From: a virus
Lineage: Duplodnaviria; Heunggongvirae; Uroviricota; Caudoviricetes
IMG/VR virus record: IMGVR_UViG_2617270990_000007
Reading direction: 5' to 3' (one strand)
DNA: 32,803 nt
Shown: piece by piece, positions 5,517 to 32,803 of the stretch
How the letters are laid out: every line of letters begins with the position of its first letter
How positions within the stretch are numbered: position 1 is the first letter of the stretch
Notes under the pieces: model-generated
Seen by the model: the letters and a program-made list of their open reading frames with translations, nothing else
What the model was told of the DNA's origin: nothing
Database searches by the model: none
Made by a program: the position numbers and the translations under genes

Positions 5517-6239
5517 GTGGATAATATGCCATACATATGTTCTATCATTTTGGTGTTGAACTCGTTTGGTGTCCGAATTGGTAAAGAAGATATTTTGTTT
5601 AAAAAAGGAAATGCTGTCCTCATTGAATACAATTTAAAAGATCTTTTTTCGTCAAATACAGATCATCTAATGATCGTAGATATTGAGGAGAAAACAGTTA
5701 ATGATTTCTTTAAAAACTACACACTCTCACCTTTTTCTGTAAGAAGGTTTTATCCGTCATACTTGATAGTAGAATGTGAAGATTTTTCATTGTTAAGGAA
5801 CTTGGTTGCATGCTTGAATTGTGATAGCAAAACCGTGGATGTAGTTAGAAATCAAATATCACTTGCATGTCTTGCTGTCTTATCTTCAGAGAAAATAGTG
5901 CAAAGTTTTTTGTTCGGAAGTCTTAATAGCTTAGGTTGTAAAGTTAAGGCTATTATTCACTCGGATATCTCAGCGTCATGGAGACTTTGTGATATATCTT
6001 CAAGATTATATATGAGCGAGAGTTTGTTAAAAAGAAAATTAAAAGACGAAGGATTATCGTTTAGTAAATTAATTCTTGAAGAACGAATGATGATGGCGCA
6101 AAGATTATTGATCTACAGTAACCATACTGTCGGCAAGGTGGCGGGAATATGCGGGTATGACAATGCATCATATTTTGTAAGTGTTTTTAGAGGATATTTT
6201 GGTGTGCCTCCGCACCAATATTTATCAAGATTTTCTTAG
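5517..6239 (+). CDS. AraC/XylS-family transcriptional regulator
   Basis: 240 aa, very AT-rich; C-terminal AraC-type HTH signature (…ASYFVSVFRGYFGVPPHQY…). Confidence 0.75.
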   Translation: MDNMPYICSIILVLNSFGVRIGKEDILFKKGNAVLIEYNLKDLFSSNTDHLMIVDIEEKTVNDFFKNYTLSPFSVRRFYPSYLIVECEDFSLLRNLVACLNCDSKTVDVVRNQISLACLAVLSSEKIVQSFLFGSLNSLGCKVKAIIHSDISASWRLCDISSRLYMSESLLKRKLKDEGLSFSKLILEERMMMAQRLLIYSNHTVGKVAGICGYDNASYFVSVFRGYFGVPPHQYLSRFS

Positions 6240-9369: not shown

Positions 9370-9458
9370 GGCTTTCAGCGGTGTAATGCGGGTTTGAGCA
9401 CCACATAAAGCCACTGAAAGCCGCTATAAATCACCCGAGTGTGGACACTGTGTGGACG
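9370..9458. other. candidate attL of the P2-like prophage (core region plus Int arm-type direct repeats)
   Basis: Two direct repeats GTGTGGAC (9439..9446, 9450..9457) at the int 3' end resemble the P2 Int arm-site consensus as I recall it; 11-bp inverted repeat GGCTTTCAGCG / CACTGAAAGCC (9370..9380, 9412..9422) just outside int. Confidence 0.4.
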
Positions 9459-10444
9459 TTTTCGGGTTCAATGCCGCCCTTTAACGGATTGAGTGTTACG
9501 GCATCTTGTAAATACTCTGGCGCGAAGTGCGCGTAGACCATTGTCTGCTCTATGCGCGCGTGACCGAGTATCCTTTGTAGCGTGATAATGCTTCCTCCGT
9601 TAATCATGAAATGCGTAGCAAAACTGTGCCGTAGAGCATGGGTTGCCTGTCCTGCTGGCAGGTCGGGCTTTACCTCTTTCAGTACCTGCCGGAACAACGT
9701 GTAATCGGCATTCGGGAACAGGAAGCCGCGCTTCACGCTGGTGAGTATTTCACATACTTCTGCCGATACTGGCACCGTTCGGGGTTTGTTCGTTTTGGTT
9801 TTAACAAACGTCACCCGATTATGGATGATGTGCTCGGCTTTCAGTTTTGCCGCTTCACCCCACCTAGCGCCCGTGCTTAGGCAAAGAACCGCTATTTTTT
9901 TATTGTCACCATCGAGCCGCGAGAAAAGGGCGGTAATTTCCTCGTTGGTTAAATAGCCCGTTTCGGGCTTCTCCTCTTTGAGTCGTTTACGTCCTCTTAT
10001 CGGGTGTTCGCCATGGTATAGCTCGGCCTCAATCAGAGCGGTAAACATTCCGCTGATGCATGTCAGATCCCGATTGATGGTAGATGGCTTAACGCCTTCA
10101 CCTCGCCGAGCTGCAACATACTGGCTAATTACCGTCTTTGTAATCTGAAACGCGCACGGATCACCGGTTATCGCCGCGAATTTCTCGACCTTTCCCCGAT
10201 TGTACTTTCCCCATTCCTCGTGCTTTGCCTTGAGTTCCCACCAGATTTGAATCAATTCGGAAAGTTGCCTTTTATCGGTCGGCTTCGCTAACCAATCCTT
10301 GTTGTGGTGGTTGTATTGCGTGTGCTTCTCAAAGGCCACTGCCTCACTTTTCTTGTCAAACTTCCTGCGGATGCGTTTTCCGTTGCGTCCGCTAGGTCTA
10401 ATGTCCACTTCATAACGACCATCATCGAGTTTCTTAATTGTCAT
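9431..10444 (-). CDS. int: P2-like tyrosine integrase
   Basis: 337 aa; C-terminal catalytic region with R…HALRHSFATH…LGH…Y motif typical of tyrosine recombinases; adjacent to C and cox in P2 order. Confidence 0.9.
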   Translation of the reverse strand: MTIKKLDDGRYEVDIRPSGRNGKRIRRKFDKKSEAVAFEKHTQYNHHNKDWLAKPTDKRQLSELIQIWWELKAKHEEWGKYNRGKVEKFAAITGDPCAFQITKTVISQYVAARRGEGVKPSTINRDLTCISGMFTALIEAELYHGEHPIRGRKRLKEEKPETGYLTNEEITALFSRLDGDNKKIAVLCLSTGARWGEAAKLKAEHIIHNRVTFVKTKTNKPRTVPVSAEVCEILTSVKRGFLFPNADYTLFRQVLKEVKPDLPAGQATHALRHSFATHFMINGGSIITLQRILGHARIEQTMVYAHFAPEYLQDAVTLNPLKGGIEPENVHTVSTLG

Positions 10445-11845: not shown

Positions 11846-12013
11846 ATGACAATTCAAACAAATGAACGCGCGCACCTGCTTGGATTGTTACGTATCAAAT
11901 TAACCTTGCTGAAAAAAGAAAAACTGTCCACCAATGAAATTTATCGCAGCCTGGAAAACTGGATCGACAACAGAGAACAGGCCGCAGAAATCAAGGAGCA
12001 AAAAAGTGATTAA
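11846..12013 (+). CDS. small ORF (55 aa) overlapping the methyltransferase start
   Basis: ATG with G-rich SD 8 nt upstream; stop TAA overlaps the GTG start region of the methyltransferase; below the 60-aa cutoff of the ORF track. Confidence 0.3.
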   Translation: MTIQTNERAHLLGLLRIKLTLLKKEKLSTNEIYRSLENWIDNREQAAEIKEQKSD

Positions 12014-12998
12014 CTCCCCTCTGATCTGGGCTGGCGGCAAGTCTCGCGCGATGCCTCATGTACTGGATGCTCTGCCGCAGGGTGAATGCCTCGTTGAGCC
12101 TTTTGTGGGTAGTGGTAGCGTCTTTCTGAATACAGACTATAAAACCTATATTCTGTGTGATAGCAATGCAGCCCTAATTAATTTCTTCTCTATGGTTAAG
12201 CGCAACACAGAAGCGCTTTTAACTTATGCATCCGCCTTGTTTTTGACTGGTAATAATGAAGATGCATATTACATAAATCGTGATGACTTCAATATTTTTA
12301 ATCGCGAGTACGCAGGGCATAGAGAGCAATATACAAATGATGAATTAGTTAAATATGCAGCGCTATTTCTTTATTTGAATCGTCACTGCTACAACGGTGT
12401 TTACCGTGTTAATTTAAAGAATGAATTCAACGTTCCTTTTGGTTTTCGTAAGAAGCCAATTTTCCCTGTGGCTGAGATTCAGCATTTTGCAAAAAGGGCT
12501 TGGGACAAAGGGGCAATGTTCCTGCATGGTGATTTCAGAGAAACAATTCCTCTATCTATCGGGCATTCAGGCTGCGTGGTTTATTGCGATCCTCCATACC
12601 TGCCAGCCAGCGAGACTGCAAATTTTACTGCATACGGTAAGCCCTTTACTGATGAAGACCATCGCGCCCTGGTTGCGATGCTTTCACGCCTCTACAACCA
12701 GGCAAAAATACCCTCTGTTATTTCCGGCAGTGACACCCCGGAAACGCGCCAAATTTACTACCCGTTCACCCTTAACTCATTCGAAGTCCGGCGTTCTGTG
12801 GGAGCAAAAACACGCAATCTCGCGGGTGAGGTGATTGGTTCGCTGCTCGTCTGTGACGAGTGCGGGCAAGTAGGGCGTGGTTATTGCGCTACCTGTTGCC
12901 CTGCCGTTGCTGGCGATGGCTATGAATCTGGAAGCGATACCTTTTGCTGTCGCAACTGCGAGATCTGCGATTCATACACAGCAGCAGAGGACTTCTGA
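12006..12998 (+). CDS. dam: Dam-like N6-adenine DNA methyltransferase with Cys-rich C-terminal extension
   Basis: SPLIWAGGK (AdoMet-binding motif I) and DPPY (catalytic motif IV); GTG start with AAGGAG SD 6 nt upstream; C-terminal ~55 aa carry ten Cys (CDECG…CATCC…CCRNCEIC). Confidence 0.85.
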   Translation: MINSPLIWAGGKSRAMPHVLDALPQGECLVEPFVGSGSVFLNTDYKTYILCDSNAALINFFSMVKRNTEALLTYASALFLTGNNEDAYYINRDDFNIFNREYAGHREQYTNDELVKYAALFLYLNRHCYNGVYRVNLKNEFNVPFGFRKKPIFPVAEIQHFAKRAWDKGAMFLHGDFRETIPLSIGHSGCVVYCDPPYLPASETANFTAYGKPFTDEDHRALVAMLSRLYNQAKIPSVISGSDTPETRQIYYPFTLNSFEVRRSVGAKTRNLAGEVIGSLLVCDECGQVGRGYCATCCPAVAGDGYESGSDTFCCRNCEICDSYTAAEDF

Positions 12999-13644: not shown

Positions 13645-16224
13645 ATGTCTTCATTTCGCCGCTCTCATAGCATGACCAACATGCCGGGAGGCTCTATCGA
13701 GCCAGCCCGGTATGCTTACGCCTGGAATGAGCCAAAAGCCGCCATCTTCGTTGATAAGGCTCCCGCTGTTGATCTATATGAATTGGGTCAAGAGCAGGAG
13801 TTTTTCGCCTGGGTTGAAAATCCCCTCAAGCCGTTGCCTATCTTCATTCGCCGCCGCATTGCCTCTTACATAAATACCGTTCACGAGGATAAAGGGCGCC
13901 ATATCGCAAAACTGAAGTTGCGCGACATCGTTAAGCGCGAGCTTCCACACGTCAGAAACGTCACGAAACAATACGCTGTGCCAGAAGACAATGAGTGGAT
14001 CATTTTCTCTGAACTAAACCCACTGTTTCACTCGTTTGAAAATCTGCGTGAACTTGTCCGCCGCTTTAATAATCTGGCGGATTGCACGGATGAAGATATT
14101 GATTTGCTGGCTCAGGACATAGCCATTTATGCCAATGCTGTTTTGGCTGAAGTGAGCGAGGGTGCAAGTGTGTTCAACGATACTGAATACACCAAACGCA
14201 TGCTGCGTGAAGGCTCCAGGCTGATTGCGTATTTCAGGTTAGTGCCGCCCTGGGCGAAGAAGCGCCGGATGGCGCTTGATGAAGCGACAGCAGCAATACA
14301 AAAAACCCTTCATGATCGCTTTTGGTCACGCCTCCTGCGCAAGTACGCCCGCCGCTGGCGCGAGCATTTGCACATTGCCTATGGTGACGTGCGCCGCGAT
14401 GTTTCACCGTATTGCAGCAAACACCACGTTACGCAGTGGGATTCACGCCGTAAGCGTAGCCGCGCAATTATGAGCCGCCTTGAACTTGAAGATCAGGTAA
14501 CTGGTGAGCGCATTTCGCTGATAGAGCAGATTGATAAGAGCATTTCTAATCCTGAAAAGCGCCGTGTTGAGTTGATGACGCGCATTGGTGGATTTGAGAA
14601 GGTGGCAACGGAAAGCGGGTTTGCCGGCAGTTTCTTCACCCTGACCGCGCCGTCTAAATATCATGCCTTTACAGCGTTCGGGCATCGTAACCGCAAATGG
14701 AACGGAGCCAGCCCCCGCAAGACACAAAACTACCTTAATCGCGTCTGGCAACTGATCCGCGCGGAGCTTGCGCGCCGTGAGATTTCTGTTTTTGGCCTTC
14801 GTGTTGCAGAGTCTCACCATGATGGTACTCCGCATTGGCATGGCCTTCTGTTCACAGCCCCAGAGCATACCGGCGAATTGCTGGAAGTGATGGAAGACTA
14901 CGCCACGCGTGAAGATGCTGATGAACTCACCGGCAAGAATGGCAAACAGCCCCGCTTTGAACTTAAGCCGATAGATCCGGCTTTGGGGAGCGCTACTGGA
15001 TATGTCGTTAAGTACATATCTAAAAACATCGACGGTTATGCACTGGATGGTGAAAGCGACGACGAAAGCGGACGCCCACTGAAGGAGACAGCAAAACACG
15101 CTACTGCCTGGGCTTCATGCTGGGGCATTCGTCAGTTTCAGTTTCTGGGTGGCGCGCCGGTGTCCGTCTGGCGTGAGTTACGCCGCCTGAAGAATCAGGA
15201 AATGGCAGATCGAATCAGTCCGGTTTTCGGTGAGTTACACCGCGCCGCCCATGCCGGGAACTGGCAGGACTACATCACCTTGCAGGGTGGTCCGTTCGTG
15301 ACACGGAATAGGCTTGTGTTGCGCGCCTGGTATCAATATCGGGATGAGCCGAGCAGTTACGGCGAGTTTCAGAGGGTTATTAAAGGGGTGGTCATGCCAG
15401 CATCGACCGTTCCTCCGGTTGAAACCCGCCTCCATTCTTATCGCATTGTCAAAAAGAAGCCAAAAGCAGACGACGCCGCCGATCGAGGTTTTGACCTTAA
15501 GGGCGCGCCCGCGCCCTCTTGGACTCGTGTCAATAACTGTACTGAGTACAAAAAACATACAAATCAAGGGGCGGTAAATCCACCGCCTGAAGATCCAGAA
15601 CAATATGAAATTGGTCAAATGAGCCGAGAGCAGAAAAAACGGCTTAATGAGAGCATCAGAAATTACAAACCAAAACAGCAAAAATCACCTGCTGATGTGT
15701 TTGAGTCGCTTGCCAATGCTATTGCCGCTTCAGATTGCGATAGCGCAGATCAGGAGCGCGCTGAAAATTACATGAAAGTGGCGGCGGCTATCCGCGATGA
15801 ATCAGCAACCCGGCGGAGCAGTGTTGTGGAGGCCACACCAATGACTGCTCACCTTCGCTATCAGCTTTCCTCTTGGGGAATTAAGTCCAAGCCTGATATT
15901 GATGCCCTTCGTCGCGGGGCTTTGCTTTCTTTTGATGATCGACATGTTTATCTGAAGGATGGCTATCTGGTAGAAAAGACCAAAGCAATTTACTGTAGGG
16001 CTAGAGATTGTAATGCGGAGTTAAATCAGGATGATATAACCTATGGCGATGAAAAGCTCTGCTTGGCTTGTACTATGAAGCTGAAGGGGGTAGAAGTAGT
16101 CGAACAGCGCCGCGATGAAGTTAAGCAGAGAGTTAAAGCGGAAAGGAAGCGGGAGAATGATGTACTCCTTGAAAGATTAAGGGTTGCGCTCATTAATGGG
16201 GGGAAGCGTGGGCAAGTACTTTGA
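13645..16224 (+). CDS. A: P2-family replication initiation protein A (rolling-circle endonuclease)
   Basis: 859 aa; central block …FFTLTAPSKYH…HHDGTPHWHGLLF…GYVVKYISKNIDG… matches the P2 gpA family (conserved Tyr/His motifs). Confidence 0.9.
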   Translation: MSSFRRSHSMTNMPGGSIEPARYAYAWNEPKAAIFVDKAPAVDLYELGQEQEFFAWVENPLKPLPIFIRRRIASYINTVHEDKGRHIAKLKLRDIVKRELPHVRNVTKQYAVPEDNEWIIFSELNPLFHSFENLRELVRRFNNLADCTDEDIDLLAQDIAIYANAVLAEVSEGASVFNDTEYTKRMLREGSRLIAYFRLVPPWAKKRRMALDEATAAIQKTLHDRFWSRLLRKYARRWREHLHIAYGDVRRDVSPYCSKHHVTQWDSRRKRSRAIMSRLELEDQVTGERISLIEQIDKSISNPEKRRVELMTRIGGFEKVATESGFAGSFFTLTAPSKYHAFTAFGHRNRKWNGASPRKTQNYLNRVWQLIRAELARREISVFGLRVAESHHDGTPHWHGLLFTAPEHTGELLEVMEDYATREDADELTGKNGKQPRFELKPIDPALGSATGYVVKYISKNIDGYALDGESDDESGRPLKETAKHATAWASCWGIRQFQFLGGAPVSVWRELRRLKNQEMADRISPVFGELHRAAHAGNWQDYITLQGGPFVTRNRLVLRAWYQYRDEPSSYGEFQRVIKGVVMPASTVPPVETRLHSYRIVKKKPKADDAADRGFDLKGAPAPSWTRVNNCTEYKKHTNQGAVNPPPEDPEQYEIGQMSREQKKRLNESIRNYKPKQQKSPADVFESLANAIAASDCDSADQERAENYMKVAAAIRDESATRRSSVVEATPMTAHLRYQLSSWGIKSKPDIDALRRGALLSFDDRHVYLKDGYLVEKTKAIYCRARDCNAELNQDDITYGDEKLCLACTMKLKGVEVVEQRRDEVKQRVKAERKRENDVLLERLRVALINGGKRGQVL

Positions 16225-16495
16225 TGATTATGAACGGGAAGCTGACTATCAAAATTGGCTCTATTATCGAGAATCTTCGCATGAGGAACGTGAGTCAAAA
16301 AGTCATTATATCAGCCAGGATGAAGCTGAGGTGGAAAGTAGGCCTAAGTTGGTTGTGACGAAAATTGAATGGCCCGCAGTAGACGTGTTTCGTGATTTCC
16401 CTGAACACCAAGCCCTGATTACCGCTGCGGAAAAAAAATACTTTGAGTCAAAATCATGCGTTCGCGACACTGGGGATGACCAAGATGATGATTGA
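16196..16495 (+). CDS. small acidic protein (about 99 aa), P2 orf91 position
   Basis: ATG-started ORF overlapping the last ~29 nt of A; highly acidic, ends DDQDDD. Confidence 0.35.
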   Translation: MGGSVGKYFDDYEREADYQNWLYYRESSHEERESKSHYISQDEAEVESRPKLVVTKIEWPAVDVFRDFPEHQALITAAEKKYFESKSCVRDTGDDQDDD

Positions 16496-16516
16496 TAATG
16501 TGTTGTAAGGTATAAG

Positions 16517-16560
16517 TTTCAGAATAACAAGGTGTTGTAAAAAATCTTGTTATTCTGAAA
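16517..16560. repeat. perfect 15-bp inverted repeat between convergent genes (possible bidirectional terminator)
   Basis: TTTCAGAATAACAAG - 14 nt - CTTGTTATTCTGAAA, 22 nt after the plus-strand ORF stop and 5 nt after the minus-strand ORF stop; no clean U-tract on either side. Confidence 0.4.
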
Positions 16561-16564
16561 GTGG

Positions 16565-17716
16565 TTAGATAGGGGAATTCATGCTATCGGGTGCTGTTAC
16601 TACCAAATGAACTTTCGTTAATCTTTCAACCGCAAGTTTAGGCAGTACACTATCAAAAATAGCTAAATAATTTTCCAAAAGGGAATTAATATAATCAAGT
16701 TTGCCATGCTCAATCTCATACCAAGTGTCAGGGAGATACCTGACTATAATGCTTAATGTATATAATACGACTAAGTGTAATACAAAGGGATCTTGAGTTC
16801 CCCAAAATGGGACAATTACACTCGTTCCACAATAACCAGATTTGTGTGTCGTGACATAATCCCACCATAGCTCATCTTCAGGGTGATGGACTTCTCCTAC
16901 AAAATATGGTTGGTCATATTTTGTGAGGTTTTCTTCTGACTCAATTTCAATGTTTTTTATTCCAATGTTGTAAGAATTAAGCTCTTCTGCTGTTACATCG
17001 CTACCTTTGGGATAAATTGCGGCATATGTAAAACCTGAGAACTCTGGTTTAGGACGCGATAGGCCACCGAGTGACTGATTCCTTGATCTTAAGAGCATGT
17101 TTCTACTTGCTTGTCCAATTTGGAATGAAAGTGGATCTTCACCGAAAGTTTCTTGTAAAAGCGGTCTTAATTCTGGAATTCGTTTTAATAAATCAGTTAA
17201 AGAATAGGTGCGTGATGGGTCTAAATCTTCATCTTTTTTTGGACGTCTTTCTGTTGCATACTGTTTGATATCAATTCCTATATGCTTTGCATATGAATAA
17301 AAATGTCCACTTTTAAGACAGCCTATTTTTATATTGTCTGGGAATGTTTCATTTTCAACAGATTGTGTGAATAGCCCATGACCTGAAACCGTATGCTTTT
17401 GAACATTTTTTAAATCGTCGTTAGGATCCCCTGATGATATTTGTTCAGCTAAGCTTATCTGTAATAATGCATAATATCTGGATAAAATTTTTGAATTGAG
17501 TCCGCCATTTTCAGTCTCCCAATATCCGATTGCACTTCGTATTGCGGAGGACATTCCAATGGATTTTTTAATCAATACATCCTCTTGCAATGACGGATGA
17601 TTATTTTCTATTATTTTCTTACAGAGCTGCGCACTCATTAATCGTTTTAATCGTAACCAGATTGCACCGCTAACATCTGCTGCAACGAAACGTTCTATTG
17701 TTTTTTCTGATGACAT
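16565..17716 (-). CDS. hypothetical protein (383 aa), hotspot cargo gene 2
   Basis: Long AT-rich ORF with AAGGAA SD 5-6 nt upstream of ATG; no domain recognised by eye. Confidence 0.6.
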   Translation of the reverse strand: MSSEKTIERFVAADVSGAIWLRLKRLMSAQLCKKIIENNHPSLQEDVLIKKSIGMSSAIRSAIGYWETENGGLNSKILSRYYALLQISLAEQISSGDPNDDLKNVQKHTVSGHGLFTQSVENETFPDNIKIGCLKSGHFYSYAKHIGIDIKQYATERRPKKDEDLDPSRTYSLTDLLKRIPELRPLLQETFGEDPLSFQIGQASRNMLLRSRNQSLGGLSRPKPEFSGFTYAAIYPKGSDVTAEELNSYNIGIKNIEIESEENLTKYDQPYFVGEVHHPEDELWWDYVTTHKSGYCGTSVIVPFWGTQDPFVLHLVVLYTLSIIVRYLPDTWYEIEHGKLDYINSLLENYLAIFDSVLPKLAVERLTKVHLVVTAPDSMNSPI

Positions 17717-17995
17717 CGCTGTTCCTTAGTTGACGTATTACAACTTTTCAAAGTTAACCATACTCTACAAAATTAGTGGTACTAAAGGGAGCATTTTTTG
17801 ATTGCCAGCAACTTCAAATCACATAGCGGGGAGCTACAATGTAGTGTGTCGCGGCTTGGTCCTTGCTAAGAATCCATGTATAACTGAGCGCCACGAAATT
17901 GTAATGCCCTTCAAAGACCGCCGGGATTGGCGGCTTTTTAGAGTTTACTTCTAGTTTTATTGCTTCAAAATAGAGATAAAAGATAATATGGCTTA

Positions 17996-19345
17996 TCAGT
18001 TAATATCAAAGCCTTCGATCTTCTCATACATCATTTCAAACCATTTGACTCGTTGTCCAGGTATTACAGCCATGAATGCGTACTCAGTGAGCATATCAGA
18101 GGAACGTAGTTCTTCATCGGTGGCTAAGTGGTATTTTAACAATATTGCAATATAATAAATCTCAGAAACATCGACAAGGTTTACAGGAATTGATAATCGT
18201 TTAAATATCTCATCTTCTGTCAGTTTTTTGTTTAATATTTCCATGAGTAAGGATTGGTTGAATATTTTCAAGAAAGCAACTAGTGCGATGGCAACATGAA
18301 ATATTTCATGTCGGTAGGAATTTACTTCGCTGGGGTCGTTCATTATTGCGAATGTTGAATAGCAACGCTCAGCCTCTCGCAGTGAACAGTTATTCATTTC
18401 TAGAAGATACGCGAGGGTTTTTACGAGAGAACCATTCCGAATCAGTATGTCATTCCCTTGATCTAACGACAGGAGATATTGTGTTAACGTTGAACGTTCA
18501 TAGCCTGCTCGGCAGCCTACTGAGAGCATACTTTTTTTAGGAAGAGTAAACCAATAATGAATAAATTTATTTAAATATAATCTTGTATTTATGCTCCCAT
18601 ATCTACACTCTATACTTTTTTCAAACTGCTCACGGTTAACTACTAGTAAGAAAACAAAACCTTCCACTGAAAATATATGTTTTATTTTCTCTAGCAAGTC
18701 AAGGGAAAAATCAGGTCGCGACCTGTCTAGCTCATCAATTATAAATATTATTTTTTTCCCACACTCAGTGTGAATCTTGGTCAGCAATGCTCTAAATTGC
18801 TCAATTGTTGCTAACTCACTCTCGCTCGTTTTTATTTTTTCTTCAATGTACTCTTCAATAGGTGATGTGAGAGAGTCACTGATGGCATCACTTGCTTTCT
18901 CCAGTGCGTTACCTGAGACTAATCCACTTGTGAAAGTGCTTACGGCAAATTTTGCACCATTAAGTGCGAATGACGCGCCTAGTTTTTTACCAATGGATAA
19001 TAACTCTTTCCCGAGGTTTTTAAGCTTTCCATCTTCTTTTTTTATGAGTGAATAAATTTTTGATGTTAAGGCTACAAATGGGTCTGATTGATAGTCATTT
19101 TCAAAAGCGTCAAAGTAAATAACGTCAAAGTTGTCAGCATGGTTTTTATTTATTTCTGATGACATCATTTTTACAAATGAGGTTTTTCCGTTACCCCATT
19201 CATCATTGAGCGCAAGTACAAGACTTTTATCTGGGGCATTTGTTGCTACCCGCATGATGATGTCATGAAGTTTTTTACGTCCAAATATGTCATCTGCTGT
19301 ACTAAAACCATCTGAGAACGCTTTAACAGGAGCGGTCAATCGCAT
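17996..19345 (-). CDS. KAP-family P-loop NTPase (449 aa), hotspot cargo gene 1
   Basis: Walker A with the KAP-typical Trp (NDEWGNGKTSF), following F-D-A-F…D-P-F segment, Walker B IIFIIDELDRSRPDF; GAGGAA SD upstream of ATG; AT-rich. Confidence 0.7.
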   Translation of the reverse strand: MRLTAPVKAFSDGFSTADDIFGRKKLHDIIMRVATNAPDKSLVLALNDEWGNGKTSFVKMMSSEINKNHADNFDVIYFDAFENDYQSDPFVALTSKIYSLIKKEDGKLKNLGKELLSIGKKLGASFALNGAKFAVSTFTSGLVSGNALEKASDAISDSLTSPIEEYIEEKIKTSESELATIEQFRALLTKIHTECGKKIIFIIDELDRSRPDFSLDLLEKIKHIFSVEGFVFLLVVNREQFEKSIECRYGSINTRLYLNKFIHYWFTLPKKSMLSVGCRAGYERSTLTQYLLSLDQGNDILIRNGSLVKTLAYLLEMNNCSLREAERCYSTFAIMNDPSEVNSYRHEIFHVAIALVAFLKIFNQSLLMEILNKKLTEDEIFKRLSIPVNLVDVSEIYYIAILLKYHLATDEELRSSDMLTEYAFMAVIPGQRVKWFEMMYEKIEGFDIN

Positions 19346-19548
19346 AATTTCTTTTCCTCATTTATTTAATGATTTAACGGCATCATAACTAGGCATGAGG
19401 TTACTTTTCAATAGAGTAAAGTGATGCACGATTGTGCGCAAAAATGCACAATAAAATCAGCCCCTTTTTGGGATTATCGAGGCAGGATCTGCGGGGGCTG
19501 GCGGTGGATCTGCAAGTGCACGAAAACACGAGTGTTCGTTGCGCGCAG

Positions 19549-19567
19549 GTGACGGGGGGAAAGCCCG
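19549..19567. other. candidate cos site of the P2-like prophage
   Basis: GGTGACGGGGGGAAAGCCC matches about 15 of 19 positions of the P2 cohesive end as I recall it, in the GC-rich gap between the hotspot and portal gene Q. Confidence 0.4.
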
Positions 19568-19750
19568 CGCGGCGGGGGGGTAGGGGGATGCCTCAAATAT
19601 AGGGAAATTGGCGCAATTCTGGCGCGCTGCTGCGTTCTGTGTGTTGTGTGCGGGTAATGGCGTGTTTAGATGATGGGGCGCTTAGAATGGCGCTGGCGCG
19701 CCGTGTGTTGATGTGATGCTAAGAGCGCCGCCGGACTGGCGGCGGTGTGG

Positions 19751-20812
19751 TTATTTGGTGGATTCAAGCAGGGCGTAAGGTTTAAAGCGGATCACTTCTT
19801 CGCCAAGCCAGTCGTTGACGTGCTTCAGTGCTTCCATTGCTGGCATCAGTTCGTTGATGGCAAACACGCGCGCGGCTTTCTCCATATCACCGAATGAGCC
19901 GTTGCCGTCCGGCATGGCCCCCATCAGTTGCGGTGGTACGCGGTGAGCGGCAAGGATGTCATCACGCGTAGCTGATTTAATATTTAAAAACTCATCCTTT
20001 GCAGATATCTGGCTGAAGGGCATCAGTTGTACCCCATCTTTGCCGCCGCCTGGTGCGTGGATCACTACGTTCTTAAATGCGCCTTTGTTCCTGGCTCCTG
20101 CCAGTGTTTGCTGTATCTGTTTTACACCAGCGTCATCTACCTGTGATGTGCCGATGTAAAGAATGCAGCCAGCATGAGATCCGTTCTCATAGTACATTTT
20201 GCGAAACATGTCCGCCGAGTGTGACAGGCTGGCTGACAGCAGGGTGCCCATATATTCCGGCATCCCGTAGATTTCCTGGTGAATATCGGGGTTCAGCACG
20301 TGGCAAACTGTGCCGGTTTCAAAGGCGCATTCGTCTTTCCACTGCCTGATAAACCAGTACGTGTCCAGGTCGGTGCCGCGCCGGGTGTACTTCGCAGGGG
20401 AATGGCGAAGCGGTAGCCGCCCGCCTAGCCGGTTCTTTCGTTCTTCAAGATAGAAGTTGCCAAACACAAACCAGTCAAGCGCCAGGGCGGAGAACGTCTG
20501 GCGAGACAGTAGCGGGTGTGGAATAAAGCATCCCGCCAGCGCGTTGCGCTTGAAGTACAGCGCTGACTGGTGCCAGGATGCTTTGCCGAATGAACGCGCA
20601 AGCCCGTACCAGTCCACCGGCGTTTCGTAATATCTGCCGTTGTCGGCGCAATACATATTGTCGAGTAGGTCGTAAGCGTCCGCGACCTGGTATGGCCCAT
20701 CAAAGGTGAAGGCGCTCAGAGCGGGATCGCGCTTTAGTGCTTCGCCAATATCAGCCTGTTGCGCGCCGTCAGTAAGCATGGTCATACCGCTTTCATGTGT
20801 TGTTGTGTTCAT
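19751..20812 (-). CDS. Q: portal protein (P2 gpQ-like)
   Basis: 353 aa; size, position next to cos and upstream-adjacent to the terminase ATPase; similarity to the gpQ family by eye. Confidence 0.85.
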   Translation of the reverse strand: MNTTTHESGMTMLTDGAQQADIGEALKRDPALSAFTFDGPYQVADAYDLLDNMYCADNGRYYETPVDWYGLARSFGKASWHQSALYFKRNALAGCFIPHPLLSRQTFSALALDWFVFGNFYLEERKNRLGGRLPLRHSPAKYTRRGTDLDTYWFIRQWKDECAFETGTVCHVLNPDIHQEIYGMPEYMGTLLSASLSHSADMFRKMYYENGSHAGCILYIGTSQVDDAGVKQIQQTLAGARNKGAFKNVVIHAPGGGKDGVQLMPFSQISAKDEFLNIKSATRDDILAAHRVPPQLMGAMPDGNGSFGDMEKAARVFAINELMPAMEALKHVNDWLGEEVIRFKPYALLESTK

Positions 20813-22536
20813 TAAAACTCCATAACGAAACTACCGCCGCCGCCGTTCTCGCGTCCAAGCGGCTCGTTGATGACTGCCAGCATATTGGCCCAGGCTAAGT
20901 CGCCGTGACTGACTCCGCGCGCGCGGTCGGTGTCATAAGTGACTTGTCCGCCGGGGGTGGTGATCTTTCTGACAGCGTTGAATGCTGACACTAGCGCCTG
21001 TTCACTGCGGTCATACTCCCAGCGCCCCGCGCGGATCACCTGTTGCATTTTCAGTACCAGGGTGCGCTTTGATGACAGCGACATTATGAAACAGACCGAA
21101 GCCGGGAAGAACTTTTTGACCAGTTGCCAGACCGCTTCACCGATGCCGGTGCCGTCAATTGCGATGTGTCGAACGTTATATTTCATCGTCAGGTCTTCGA
21201 TCACTTTGGCCTGTTCTTCAAACTCCATCCCGCGTAGCTGGCGCGTCTCTATCGTGCGGAACTTGCCGCCACTGACAAGGGGAGGGGCAACCACGGAAAC
21301 AGCGCCGCTGTCACCGTTGCCGCTGCCGCCGTTGGCGTCGTAGCCTATCCAGACTTCACGATCACCCAGCGGGCGGGGTGCGTAGGGTTTCCAGTCCTGC
21401 CAGTCGTCGTAGCCGTCCGCGCCACACGTCAGTAGCTGATTGAGTGAGAAAACAGCCTCGCCTTCTCTGACGAACTCACACATGTACAGGTTGGTGTATT
21501 CGTCCGGGGTGTTTTCGTCCTGGATTTCTTCCAGGTCGGTGAACTCCCAGCCGTGGTCGATCACGTCCTTTAGGGTGACAATCTGCCGCCAGGTTTTGTC
21601 CGGGCACAATAGGCCGCTGTTTAGCGTTTTCCAGCTTGTGTCGAAGTCTACCCTGCTGGACTTGGCCCGCTTCTCATTCCAGCGCTTGCCCGTCCAGAAG
21701 GGGTAGGCTTCGTGGCTTTCGCTCGATGGCGTTGAAAAGTAAGTGCGCGTAAGCCCTTTCAGGGTTGCCATAGCGCCAGCCACTTTGCGAAGGTTGGCAA
21801 AGTTGCCTACCCAGAAAAATTCATCAAAAAACAGGTTGCCGGTGTAGCTCTGCGCAGTAGCGGCAGACGTGCCGAGAAAATGCAATTCAGCCCCGTTAGA
21901 CAGCAAAATTTTGTCACCGCCCTTTAGTTCTACGTCTACCTCTTCGGCAATCTTCTGAATGAATCCCCGGAACTGGTGCGCCTGGCGGCGTGACGCTGAC
22001 AGAAAAATCTGGTTGCGTTGGTATCCGTGCTTAACGTCATCCCGCAGCGCCTGTAATAGCGCTTCGCGGGCAAAATACCAGGTTGCGCCAATCTGGCGAC
22101 TTTTCAGGATCATGCGGTTTCGTTGCTGGCGCTGTTCAAACCATCCCTGCTGATGCCAGGCCAGAGAGTCCTGAATTTTTTCCCGCAGCGCGGCGATCTG
22201 CGCTTCGGTGAAGTGGTTTTTCTTCTTGCCCGCGCGCGCTTTCTTGAAGGGTTGCGCCGGTTGGCCTTCTGCCAGCTTCTTCACCTGGCGCGTGAGCGCG
22301 TCGATTTCCTTCAGATCGCCGCCGGTCTTTGTTGGTTTCATCGCGATTTGGCATAACCGGGCATCAATAGATTGTGTGACGCGCTGAATCGCGGGCGTTT
22401 CGTCCCATTCGTCGCGCTTTTTCCACGAATAAACCGTGTTCTGACTGATACCCATCAGGCGTGCGATCTCTGCTGGCGGGTAGCCCTGCCAGTAAAGCTG
22501 CTTTGCTCTCTGTCTTACAAATGCGTCCTGGATCAT
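20812..22536 (-). CDS. P: terminase large (ATPase) subunit (P2 gpP-like)
   Basis: Start set at the internal ATG (MIQDAF…) with AGAGGA SD, because the longer track ORF would cover the late-promoter dyad at 22602..22619. Confidence 0.85.
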   Translation of the reverse strand: MIQDAFVRQRAKQLYWQGYPPAEIARLMGISQNTVYSWKKRDEWDETPAIQRVTQSIDARLCQIAMKPTKTGGDLKEIDALTRQVKKLAEGQPAQPFKKARAGKKKNHFTEAQIAALREKIQDSLAWHQQGWFEQRQQRNRMILKSRQIGATWYFAREALLQALRDDVKHGYQRNQIFLSASRRQAHQFRGFIQKIAEEVDVELKGGDKILLSNGAELHFLGTSAATAQSYTGNLFFDEFFWVGNFANLRKVAGAMATLKGLTRTYFSTPSSESHEAYPFWTGKRWNEKRAKSSRVDFDTSWKTLNSGLLCPDKTWRQIVTLKDVIDHGWEFTDLEEIQDENTPDEYTNLYMCEFVREGEAVFSLNQLLTCGADGYDDWQDWKPYAPRPLGDREVWIGYDANGGSGNGDSGAVSVVAPPLVSGGKFRTIETRQLRGMEFEEQAKVIEDLTMKYNVRHIAIDGTGIGEAVWQLVKKFFPASVCFIMSLSSKRTLVLKMQQVIRAGRWEYDRSEQALVSAFNAVRKITTPGGQVTYDTDRARGVSHGDLAWANMLAVINEPLGRENGGGGSFVMEF

Positions 22537-22601
22537 GCGGTGTCCTCTCGTTTCGATGGAGAGATTAACCCGCGCGCGTGGGCCGTTCCCGCTGTTTGGG
22601 T

Positions 22602-22619
22602 TGTGGGCCGTCTCTGACA
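22602..22619. promoter_or_regulatory. late-promoter activator dyad (TGT-N12-ACA) in the divergent P/O promoter region
   Basis: TGTGGGCCGTCTCTGACA; centre lies about 55 bp from plausible start points for both P (leftward) and O (rightward). Confidence 0.5.
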
Positions 22620-22692
22620 ACTAAAACGCGTTGAGACAATGACTTAGCAACTGACATCATGGAAAAACAGAAACCAACCGGCAGGAAAGAAC

Positions 22693-31498: not shown

Positions 31499-31540
31499 TG
31501 AACCGCCCCGGGTTTCCTGGAGAGTGTTTTATCTGTGAAC

Positions 31541-32431
31541 TCAGGCTGCCAGATCATCGTTTCCGATGGAAGCATAATAAGCTTTTTCTGCTTCTGCCGG
31601 AGGAGTATGGCCCAGCCTTCCCAGCAATCGTCGATTGTTATACCAGTCCACCCACGTTAGTGTGGCCAGTTCCACTTCTGCACGGTTTTTCCAGCTCTTA
31701 CGGTGTATTACCTCCGCTTTGTAAAGACCATTGATGCTCTCAGCCATCGCGTTGTCATACGAGTCGCCTGTACTCCCTGTTGATGCCAGTAATCCGGCTT
31801 CTTTTAGTCGCTCCGTATAGGCCAGTGACACATACTGAGAGCCTTTATCGCTGTGATGGATGGTGCCAGACGGACGACGGGCCCACAACGCCTGCTCCAG
31901 CGCATCCAGCACGAATGTCGTTTCCATAGACGATGAGACCCGCCACCCCACGATGTATCCGGCAAACACATCAATGATAAACGCCACATAGACGAAGCCC
32001 TGCCATGTGCTGACGTAAGTAAAATCAGCCACCCACAGCTGGTCAGGTCGTTCTGCCACGAACTGACGGTTTACGCGGTCGCCTGCGGCAACGGCTTTCC
32101 GGCTGATGGTCGTACGGACCTTTTTACCCCGGAGAACACCGGCAAGTCCCATAACCGCCATGAGACGTGCCACTGTACATCTGGCCACCCTGATTCCTTC
32201 CCGTAACAACTGACGCCAGACTTTACGCACACCGTACACCTGATGATTTTCATCGTATACGCGCTGTATCTCTCTCTTCAGCCAGTCGTCGTGCTGCGCA
32301 CGGGCACTGCGTTTATCCGGATGATGTCGCTGTTGCTGACAATGGTAATACGTTGACGGGGCAATATGCAGTTCGCTGCATACCGGTCCGACCCCGTACT
32401 GCTCACGCAGCTTATCCAGCAGTGGCATCAT
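31541..32431 (-). CDS. IS3-family transposase OrfB (copy 2)
   Basis: Translation identical to ORF 24..914. Confidence 0.9.
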
Positions 32432-32754
32432 TTTTTCCAGAGGCGGTCGAACTCCGCCTTCGCAAAATAAGCGGAAGCCTGGCGAAGGATATCGTTACTG
32501 CGGCGCAGTTCACGATTTTCACGTTCCAGCTCTTTCAGACGCTGACGTTCAGCGCTGGTGAGCCCACCATCACCGCCCCCGGTATCCCGCTCATGCTGGC
32601 GAACCCAGACACGCAGAGTCTCCGGCGTACAGCCAATCTTTGGGGCAATGGAACAAATTGCCGCCCACTGTGAGTCATATTCATCCTGACTTTCCAGAAC
32701 CATACGAATCGCCCGCTGACGGACTTCGGGGGAAAAACGAGTATTTTTAGTCAT
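32428..32754 (-). CDS. IS3-family transposase OrfA (copy 2)
   Basis: Translation identical to ORF 911..1237. Confidence 0.9.
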
Positions 32755-32803
32755 CCTGTTTACCTCTTTCTCAGGGAGTTTAGTCTCCAGGATTTCCGGG
32801 GCG

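Follow-up and report, generated by a model that had tools for sequence, protein, structure and literature searches.

A KAP NTPase gene and a YaaC-family gene in the gpA-portal hotspot of a P2-like Escherichia coli prophage: probably two exchangeable cassettes

The IMG/VR virus record IMGVR_UViG_2617270990_000007, a DNA of 32,803 nucleotides that was analysed over its whole length and is called the window below, represents a P2-like prophage of Escherichia coli, with an integrase gene at 9431-10444 and a terminase gene at 20812-22620. Between its replication gene gpA and its portal gene, the prophage carries an insert (16496-19423) with two genes, one for a KAP NTPase and one for a protein of the YaaC family. 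This insert probably consists of two independently exchangeable single-gene cassettes that are stacked in the P2 gpA-portal hotspot and do not form a co-evolved two-gene system. An earlier, sequence-only reading of this DNA had placed two minus-strand open reading frames (ORFs) of 449 and 383 amino acids (aa) between the end of gpA, at 16224, and the portal gene, with coordinates that proved exact, and had proposed that they might make up an undescribed KAP-plus-partner system, a proposal that failed when the conservation of the pair was checked. The insert comprises the following parts.

17996..19345, minus strand: gene for a KAP P-loop NTPase of 449 aa (Pfam and PHROG profiles), of the PDC-S20 type by PADLOC profiles; cassette 1 (about 17995-19423, portal side)
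17775..17994, no strand: junction of 220 bp between the cassettes, common to neither KAP-only nor YaaC-only relatives
16565..17716, minus strand: gene for a YaaC-family protein of 383 aa (Pfam PF14175); cassette 2 (about 16496-17774, gpA side)

The relationship between the two genes was assessed in a census, in which both proteins were searched with tblastn across 69 retrieved loci (numbered with an L below). Both genes were present together at six loci, all of which are copies of the same E. coli element (at least 99.8% identical), and the other loci contained either KAP only (29) or YaaC only (34). Thus, beyond this one element, YaaC accompanied KAP at 0/29 loci and KAP accompanied YaaC at 0/34. 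Many draft assemblies of E. coli encode exactly these KAP and YaaC proteins together, and throughout they do so within one and the same prophage (L001-L004, L023, and L027). The combined element was found solely in such draft assemblies; when the cargo DNA was compared by megablast with 5,426 complete E. coli genomes and 50,697 phage records, backbone fragments only, or nothing, were retrieved.

Homologues of the KAP protein with 84, 72, 65, and 48% identity are located in the portal-gpA slot of other P2-like prophages, never with YaaC. In this slot, the KAP gene is found alone (L049, L014), with small unannotated ORFs only (L011-L013), or with HicAB (L015-L017), and the nearest relative, with 84% identity, stands alone between the portal gene and gpA. 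The nearest relative of the YaaC protein (88% identity, L048) likewise belongs to a P2 hotspot, where its gene follows one for DUF2806 and KAP is missing. Homologues with 78% identity are encoded alone after the primase gene of a P4-like satellite (L018) and in the moron region of another prophage, between UmuDC-like and SRAP genes (L024), and an 80% homologue is found behind Abi_alpha at two chromosomal sites (L020, L021). A homologue with only ~29% identity is cargo of a Tn3-family transposon on IncF plasmids, where its gene follows straight after that of the resolvase.

Comparison at the DNA level by blastn places the ends of homology between the two genes. In the KAP-only locus L049, homology sets in at window position 17995, with the stop codon of KAP, and extends past 20000. 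Conversely, the YaaC-only locus L048 is homologous to 15837-17774 and to 19424-19570, and a DUF2806 gene and a 92-aa ORF replace the KAP cassette in between. More distant loci match over the individual genes only, i.e., ~16527-17730 for YaaC-only loci and ~18254-19360 for KAP-only loci. Since the recombination breakpoints lie between the genes, the insert can be considered a mosaic, made up of two cassettes that can be exchanged independently of each other. Neither the short gap nor the shared boundaries of operon-like linkage were observed: the spacer between KAP and YaaC measures 279 bp and contains a GC-rich hairpin, CCGCCGGGATTGGCGG, at 17918-17933, which is followed by a T-run on the plus strand and by an A-run/TCTTT on the minus strand. 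A search of this spacer for structured RNA in Rfam yielded nothing credible, as the matches at E ~0.6 fall within the KAP ORF. With breakpoints resolved to tens of bases, the locus illustrates cleanly how a hotspot turns over one cassette at a time in nature, with KAP swapped for DUF2806 and YaaC present or absent, and it calls for caution in equating adjacency in a hotspot with membership of an operon.

The plus strand of the junction (17813-17940) shows a promoter-like sequence, TTCAAA-16-TACAAT (17813-17840), upstream of the 17918-17933 hairpin with its good T-run. Judged by these motifs, the site and the hairpin could together give rise to a short RNA of ~90 nt, transcribed against the direction of the cargo.

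The 449-aa protein had rightly been recognized as a KAP NTPase. It matches Pfam KAP_NTPase (PF07693) over residues 24-277 (6.7e-38; 131 bits against a cut-off of 20), two PADLOC models for PDC-S20 (PDLC04959 at 1.2e-74 over residues 18-403 and PDLC04956 at 3.5e-60), and phrog_8614 (1.9e-122). Both nucleotide-binding motifs are intact, i.e., Walker A at G51-N-G-K54-T55 and Walker B at I199-IFIIDE205, and residues G51, G53, K54, D204, and E205 are invariant across 58 homologues. An AlphaFold (AF2) model, with a predicted local distance difference test score (pLDDT) of 81.2, shows a P-loop core, a helical hairpin insertion at residues 107-195, and an all-alpha C-terminal domain. The tip of the hairpin (residues 130-161) is rich in G, A, and S and disordered in the model (pLDDT <50). 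It sits where classical KAPs carry transmembrane helices; the insertion of such helices in the P-loop domain is a classical KAP feature, as a paper citing Aravind et al. relates. In the 449-aa protein, no clear transmembrane helices were detected, the top Kyte-Doolittle window (1.72) being located in the C-terminal helical domain. Neither the Pfam scan nor the AlphaFold model revealed a recognizable effector domain, and sequence searches of solved structures gave no match for the KAP or the YaaC protein.

Judging from these profile matches, the KAP gene is of a known, already catalogued kind, PADLOC PDC-S20. The PDC systems, 145 in number, are “phage defence candidates” that were proposed through guilt-by-embedding and are untested, and the “S” stands for single-gene (Payne et al., 2024 preprint); a literature search for PDC-S20 retrieved no paper. 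The designation as a single-gene system agrees with the homologues that stand alone in the hotspot, whereas the gene discussed here has the unrelated YaaC gene as a neighbor. The match is silent on the mechanism. The sequence-only reading had added that the module might be undescribed. For KAP, this does not hold, since the gene can be searched for as PDC-S20 and KAP_NTPase is listed by Rousset et al. (2022), but it does hold for YaaC as a single gene; a new two-gene KAP system is not supported at the locus.

Several KAP proteins have been connected with defence. Tmn is a single-protein KAP NTPase that was experimentally shown to protect against phages, and in a study in Enterococcus four single-protein KAP NTPases defended against phages, with a Walker B mutant being inactive. 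EF_KAP of Enterococcus and PifA of the F-plasmid, like Tmn, are validated defences of this kind. PifA matches the KAP NTPase domain weakly (1.8e-19). The similarity of the 449-aa protein to Tmn, EF_KAP, and PifA is restricted to the NTPase core, and it lacks a long region like the 322-aa C-terminal “effector” region of EF_KAP. By analogy with these three proteins, the KAP protein would most likely be a self-contained switch dependent on the hydrolysis of nucleoside triphosphates, which would sense a phage component and block infection alone. There is also a weak similarity to the NTPase domain of QatA of the QatABCD system (PADLOC 4.7e-15; NCBIfam 53 bits). However, the locus is not a Qat system, because the NCBIfam score of 53 bits compares with a cut-off of 600 and because QatB, QatC, and QatD are absent from the locus.

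The 383-aa protein, for which no recognizable family had been seen, is a clear member of Pfam YaaC (PF14175), with 73 bits against a cut-off of 27 over profile positions 29-307 of 307, and PF14175 is carried by 120/120 homologues among the matches listed. Checking of both proteins against PADLOC and Pfam, as had been recommended, thus yielded KAP_NTPase and PDC-S20 for the 449-aa protein, and for the 383-aa protein the Pfam family without a PADLOC match. NCBIfam and PHROG gave no match for the latter either; the family is not represented in PADLOC v2, PHROGs, or NCBIfam. Both ORFs are real genes, because each has hundreds of homologues and because their models reach high pLDDT values, that of YaaC being 92.8.

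The AlphaFold model of YaaC shows a possibly HEPN-like helical core (residues ~45-93 and 310-367) and an alpha/beta insertion of ~200 aa. The insertion bears the invariant residues His113, His138, His278, Glu182, and Asp309, and a further invariant motif is Arg326-Tyr-x-Pro-x-x-Trp332. The Rx4-6H catalytic motif of HEPN proteins is absent from the 383-aa protein: R326 is invariant in the family, but position 333 is a His in 52/80 sequences and a Tyr in 26/80, including the protein discussed here, and an Arg in a plasmid-borne subgroup of 500-aa proteins. No HEPN Pfam model matches YaaC. When compared with HEPN structures, the model always scored a Z below 8, and generic helical bundles scored alike. 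Foldseek searches with the model against the PDB and against the viral structures of BFVD gave nothing significant, and no Pfam family was found in the N-terminal extensions of relatives of 500, 580, and 757 aa. Proteins of abortive-infection or toxin systems with HEPN domains, such as AbiD/F, HepN toxins, and Csx1, differ from YaaC in lacking the ~200-aa alpha/beta insertion. YaaC would act as an autonomous effector, probably enzymatic and of a toxic or abortive-infection type, possibly as a non-canonical HEPN-like nuclease.

Our searches brought up no paper on the function of YaaC, and the 2013 HEPN survey does not mention it in its main text. Neither YaaC nor KAP appears in Vassallo (2022) or in the main text of DefensePredictor. 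A description of YaaC as an integron cassette was rejected, since “YaaC” in the integron papers is the DNA consensus 5'-YAAC-3'.

The YaaC family is rare, patchy, and mobile. Clustered at 50% identity, it accounts for 412 clusters in a set of 1.84 billion representatives, and only 17 loci were found in ~100,000 species genomes, distributed over Proteobacteria, Chlorobiota, Bacteroidota, Acidobacteriota, a Methanobacterium, and a metagenome-assembled genome of Lokiarchaeota. From Proteobacteria to Archaea, its carriers include P2 hotspots, P4-like satellites, Tn3-family transposons, and defence islands. In unrelated lineages, eight out of ten immediate neighbors of YaaC match PADLOC models. These neighbors are the DRT system RT_UG10 (E=0, complete), an SpbK-like TIR protein, PDC-S47 (Abi_alpha), a protein of the PDC-S64 and type I restriction endonuclease-like kind, a PDC-M68B/LmuB-like ABC ATPase, an HNH protein, and, at two loci, a NERD-like protein. 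Several of them, i.e., RT_UG10 DRT, the SpbK-like protein, PDC-S47, and PDC-S64, are complete single-gene systems. Integrases, insertion sequence (IS) elements, AbiEii, Wadjet-like genes, and HEPN_Apea are additional neighbors. An all-versus-all BLASTP of the neighbors revealed no partner family that recurs across unrelated YaaC loci, with the exception of one block in Burkholderia and Caballeronia. Abi_alpha and DUF2806 had been considered as one recurrent partner family, but this was rejected, as BLASTP detected no similarity between them. Since the neighbors are mostly defence genes and no partner recurs, YaaC is, by guilt by association, indicated as an autonomous gene of defence islands.

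Because of this genomic company, its mobility, and its patchy distribution, YaaC is a credible new candidate for single-gene defence, and one that is cheap to test. More tentatively, and with rather less confidence than we have in the cassette structure of the insert, PF14175 might represent a previously unrecognized autonomous single-gene family directed against phages or mobile elements, in which a HEPN-like scaffold would have lost the canonical Rx4-6H dyad and would use the invariant set of His, His, His, Glu, and Asp in the alpha/beta insertion instead.

Several further YaaC loci deserve mention. In Burkholderia sp. H160 (L058, 5405-10032) and Caballeronia udeis (L064, 5962-10031), the exceptional block consists of three genes on the same strand, one for a NERD-like protein of 828 or 655 aa, one for YaaC, and one for a protein of unknown kind of 307 or 285 aa, with ORFs that overlap or nearly abut. 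No other multi-gene arrangement of YaaC was seen to recur, and this one may be a true operon that includes YaaC. On an IMG/VR contig (L026, 4174-7158), a gene for a 595-aa ABC ATPase (DUF2326; PDC-M68B at 7e-59, LmuB-like) ends at 5961, a gene for a YaaC protein with 41% identity begins at 5962, and a gene for a second ATPase (AAA_15/AAA_21) follows. In Citrobacter (L020 and L021, 5034-7152), the same pair of Abi_alpha (PDC-S47) and YaaC is present at two chromosomal sites, the first within an integrase island at smpB/tmRNA and the second between housekeeping genes, which suggests a joint transfer of Abi_alpha and YaaC on at least one occasion. On the E. coli IncFIA plasmid pHNEC46 (L051, 4962-7077) and at L052, a YaaC-family protein of 506 aa with an N-terminal extension of ~135 aa is encoded directly downstream of a serine recombinase. 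At L052, it adjoins a Tn3-family transposase gene, and on pHNEC46 it is located a few kb from blaNDM-1. The arrangement of recombinase and YaaC echoes the idea of the recombinase as a defence marker (PMC12632615).

Could KAP and YaaC nevertheless work together, at least in the E. coli lineage, with KAP as the sensor or switch and YaaC as the effector? The two genes are adjacent on the same strand, the only terminator between them on this strand is weak, and the lack of a recognizable effector domain in KAP would fit such a division of labor. In a more general form of this explanation, YaaC would serve, without a fixed partner, as the effector or accessory module downstream of whichever NTPase or large sensor precedes it. 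It is indeed often found just downstream of variable genes on the same strand, such as those for the abutting DUF2326 ABC ATPase of L026, a CHAT protein (L007), an HNH protein (at a gap of 26 bp), and the NERD-like protein of the three-gene block (with an overlap of 4 bp). However, many of these upstream neighbors are complete single-gene systems themselves, each of the two genes occurs as the sole cargo of a hotspot or element, and among the 69 loci the pair is confined to a single E. coli element, in which the breakpoints and a gap with a hairpin separate the genes. A functional two-gene system therefore appears rather unlikely.

Two separate cassettes could still have a role other than defence against phages, for one or both genes. 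They might be involved in counter-defence, serve as toxins in prophage maintenance or in competition between elements, or have a cellular role, as the name of the chromosomal yaaC of Bacillus might imply. PDC-S20 is a prediction, some YaaC loci border housekeeping genes (Lon/OsmC, MatE), and carriage on Tn3 elements and plasmids would be consistent with addiction or competition as well; the lack of functional reports on YaaC also leaves room for such roles. On the other hand, experiments have established the gpA-portal slot as a hotspot of defence, single-protein KAPs are validated defences, and the neighborhood of YaaC is dominated by genes of defence and of mobile elements. Furthermore, a rare and patchy distribution across domains of life is typical of defence genes. 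We therefore consider a non-defence role improbable, and defence, as originally suggested, is a plausible role for the hotspot cargo. Thus, two stacked single-gene cassettes, each with a putative function in defence, remain the preferred explanation of the insert.

The surroundings of the two cassettes are composed of the following features.

13645..16224, plus strand: P2 gpA replication gene, the left backbone flank (859-aa ORF; the identical gene of L001 is Pfam Phage_GPA)
16184..16495, plus strand: backbone ORF of 103 aa (95-99 aa in public assemblies), which overlaps the end of gpA; GC content 0.449
16519..16558, no strand: perfect 13-bp inverted repeat, TCAGAATAACAAG / CTTGTTATTCTGA, between two convergent stop codons, as read from the sequence
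19382..19411, minus strand: best sigma-70-like promoter match upstream of KAP, TTGAAA-18-TATGAT, 10/12, a consensus match only
19424..19750, no strand: intergenic DNA of the backbone towards cos and the portal gene, GC-rich (GC content 0.53), the right edge of the hotspot; 19424-19570 is kept in L048 despite different adjacent cargo
19751..20812, minus strand: P2 portal gene Q, the right backbone flank (353-aa ORF; Pfam Phage_portal in L001)

The insert differs from these flanks in composition and orientation, as had been noted before. The GC content is 0.363 for the YaaC gene and 0.367 for the KAP gene vs. 0.511 for gpA, 0.540 for the portal gene, and 0.563 for the terminase gene, and at third codon positions it is 0.26 and 0.33, respectively, vs. 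0.52-0.62 in the flanking genes. Both genes are on the minus strand, opposite to gpA. Located between gpA and gpQ, compositionally foreign, and with a content that varies among related prophages, the insert is cargo of the slot defined as a hotspot by Rousset et al. (2022), and its assignment to this hotspot as horizontally acquired DNA was correct. It resembles old/tin of P2 and the hotspot systems described in 2022 in its position between gpA and the portal gene, its AT-rich and variable cargo, and its modular turnover, but the gene content of old/tin is unrelated to that of the KAP/YaaC insert. In the part of the table of E. coli P2 hotspot loci of Rousset et al. (2022) that was available, KAP_NTPase is listed at least 69 times, with varied partners, and YaaC does not appear.

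On the gpA side, the 103-aa ORF showed no family match in Pfam, PADLOC, NCBIfam, or PHROG. It belongs to the backbone and not to the cargo, because it is kept beside gpA in L048, of which the hotspot cargo differs, and the cargo is therefore considered to start at ~16496. The inverted repeat, which blastn also reported as a self-match at 16517-16560, is likely a bidirectional terminator at the left edge of the cargo, and part of it moves with YaaC in the Citrobacter loci, where homology starts from ~16527. Sigma-70-like sites, such as the one upstream of KAP, are not more numerous in the region than expected from shuffled sequences. At the portal side, a 19-mer taken as the P2 cos sequence, GGCGAGGCGGGGAAAGCAC, has no match with three or fewer mismatches anywhere in the window, so that the cos position given by the sequence-only reading is tentative; either the cos of this P2-like phage is divergent or the 19-mer used is wrong. 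A GGGGGGAAAGCCCGCG stretch is located near 19560-19590.

Elsewhere in the window, positions 1-1286 and 31518-32803 are 100% identical, and each contains a pair of IS3-family-like ORFs (108 and 296 aa) on the minus strand. These identical ends of 1286 bases are either two IS copies that bracket the region or an artefact of terminal overlap or assembly, which, in the latter case, could give the contig a circular or “complete” look. In the early region of the prophage (11934-12998), a D12-class N6-adenine methyltransferase of ~330-354 aa is encoded (PF02086 in the identical gene of L001), and the 5' part of its gene is markedly AT-rich relative to the backbone, with a GC content of 0.40-0.42 at 12000-12600.

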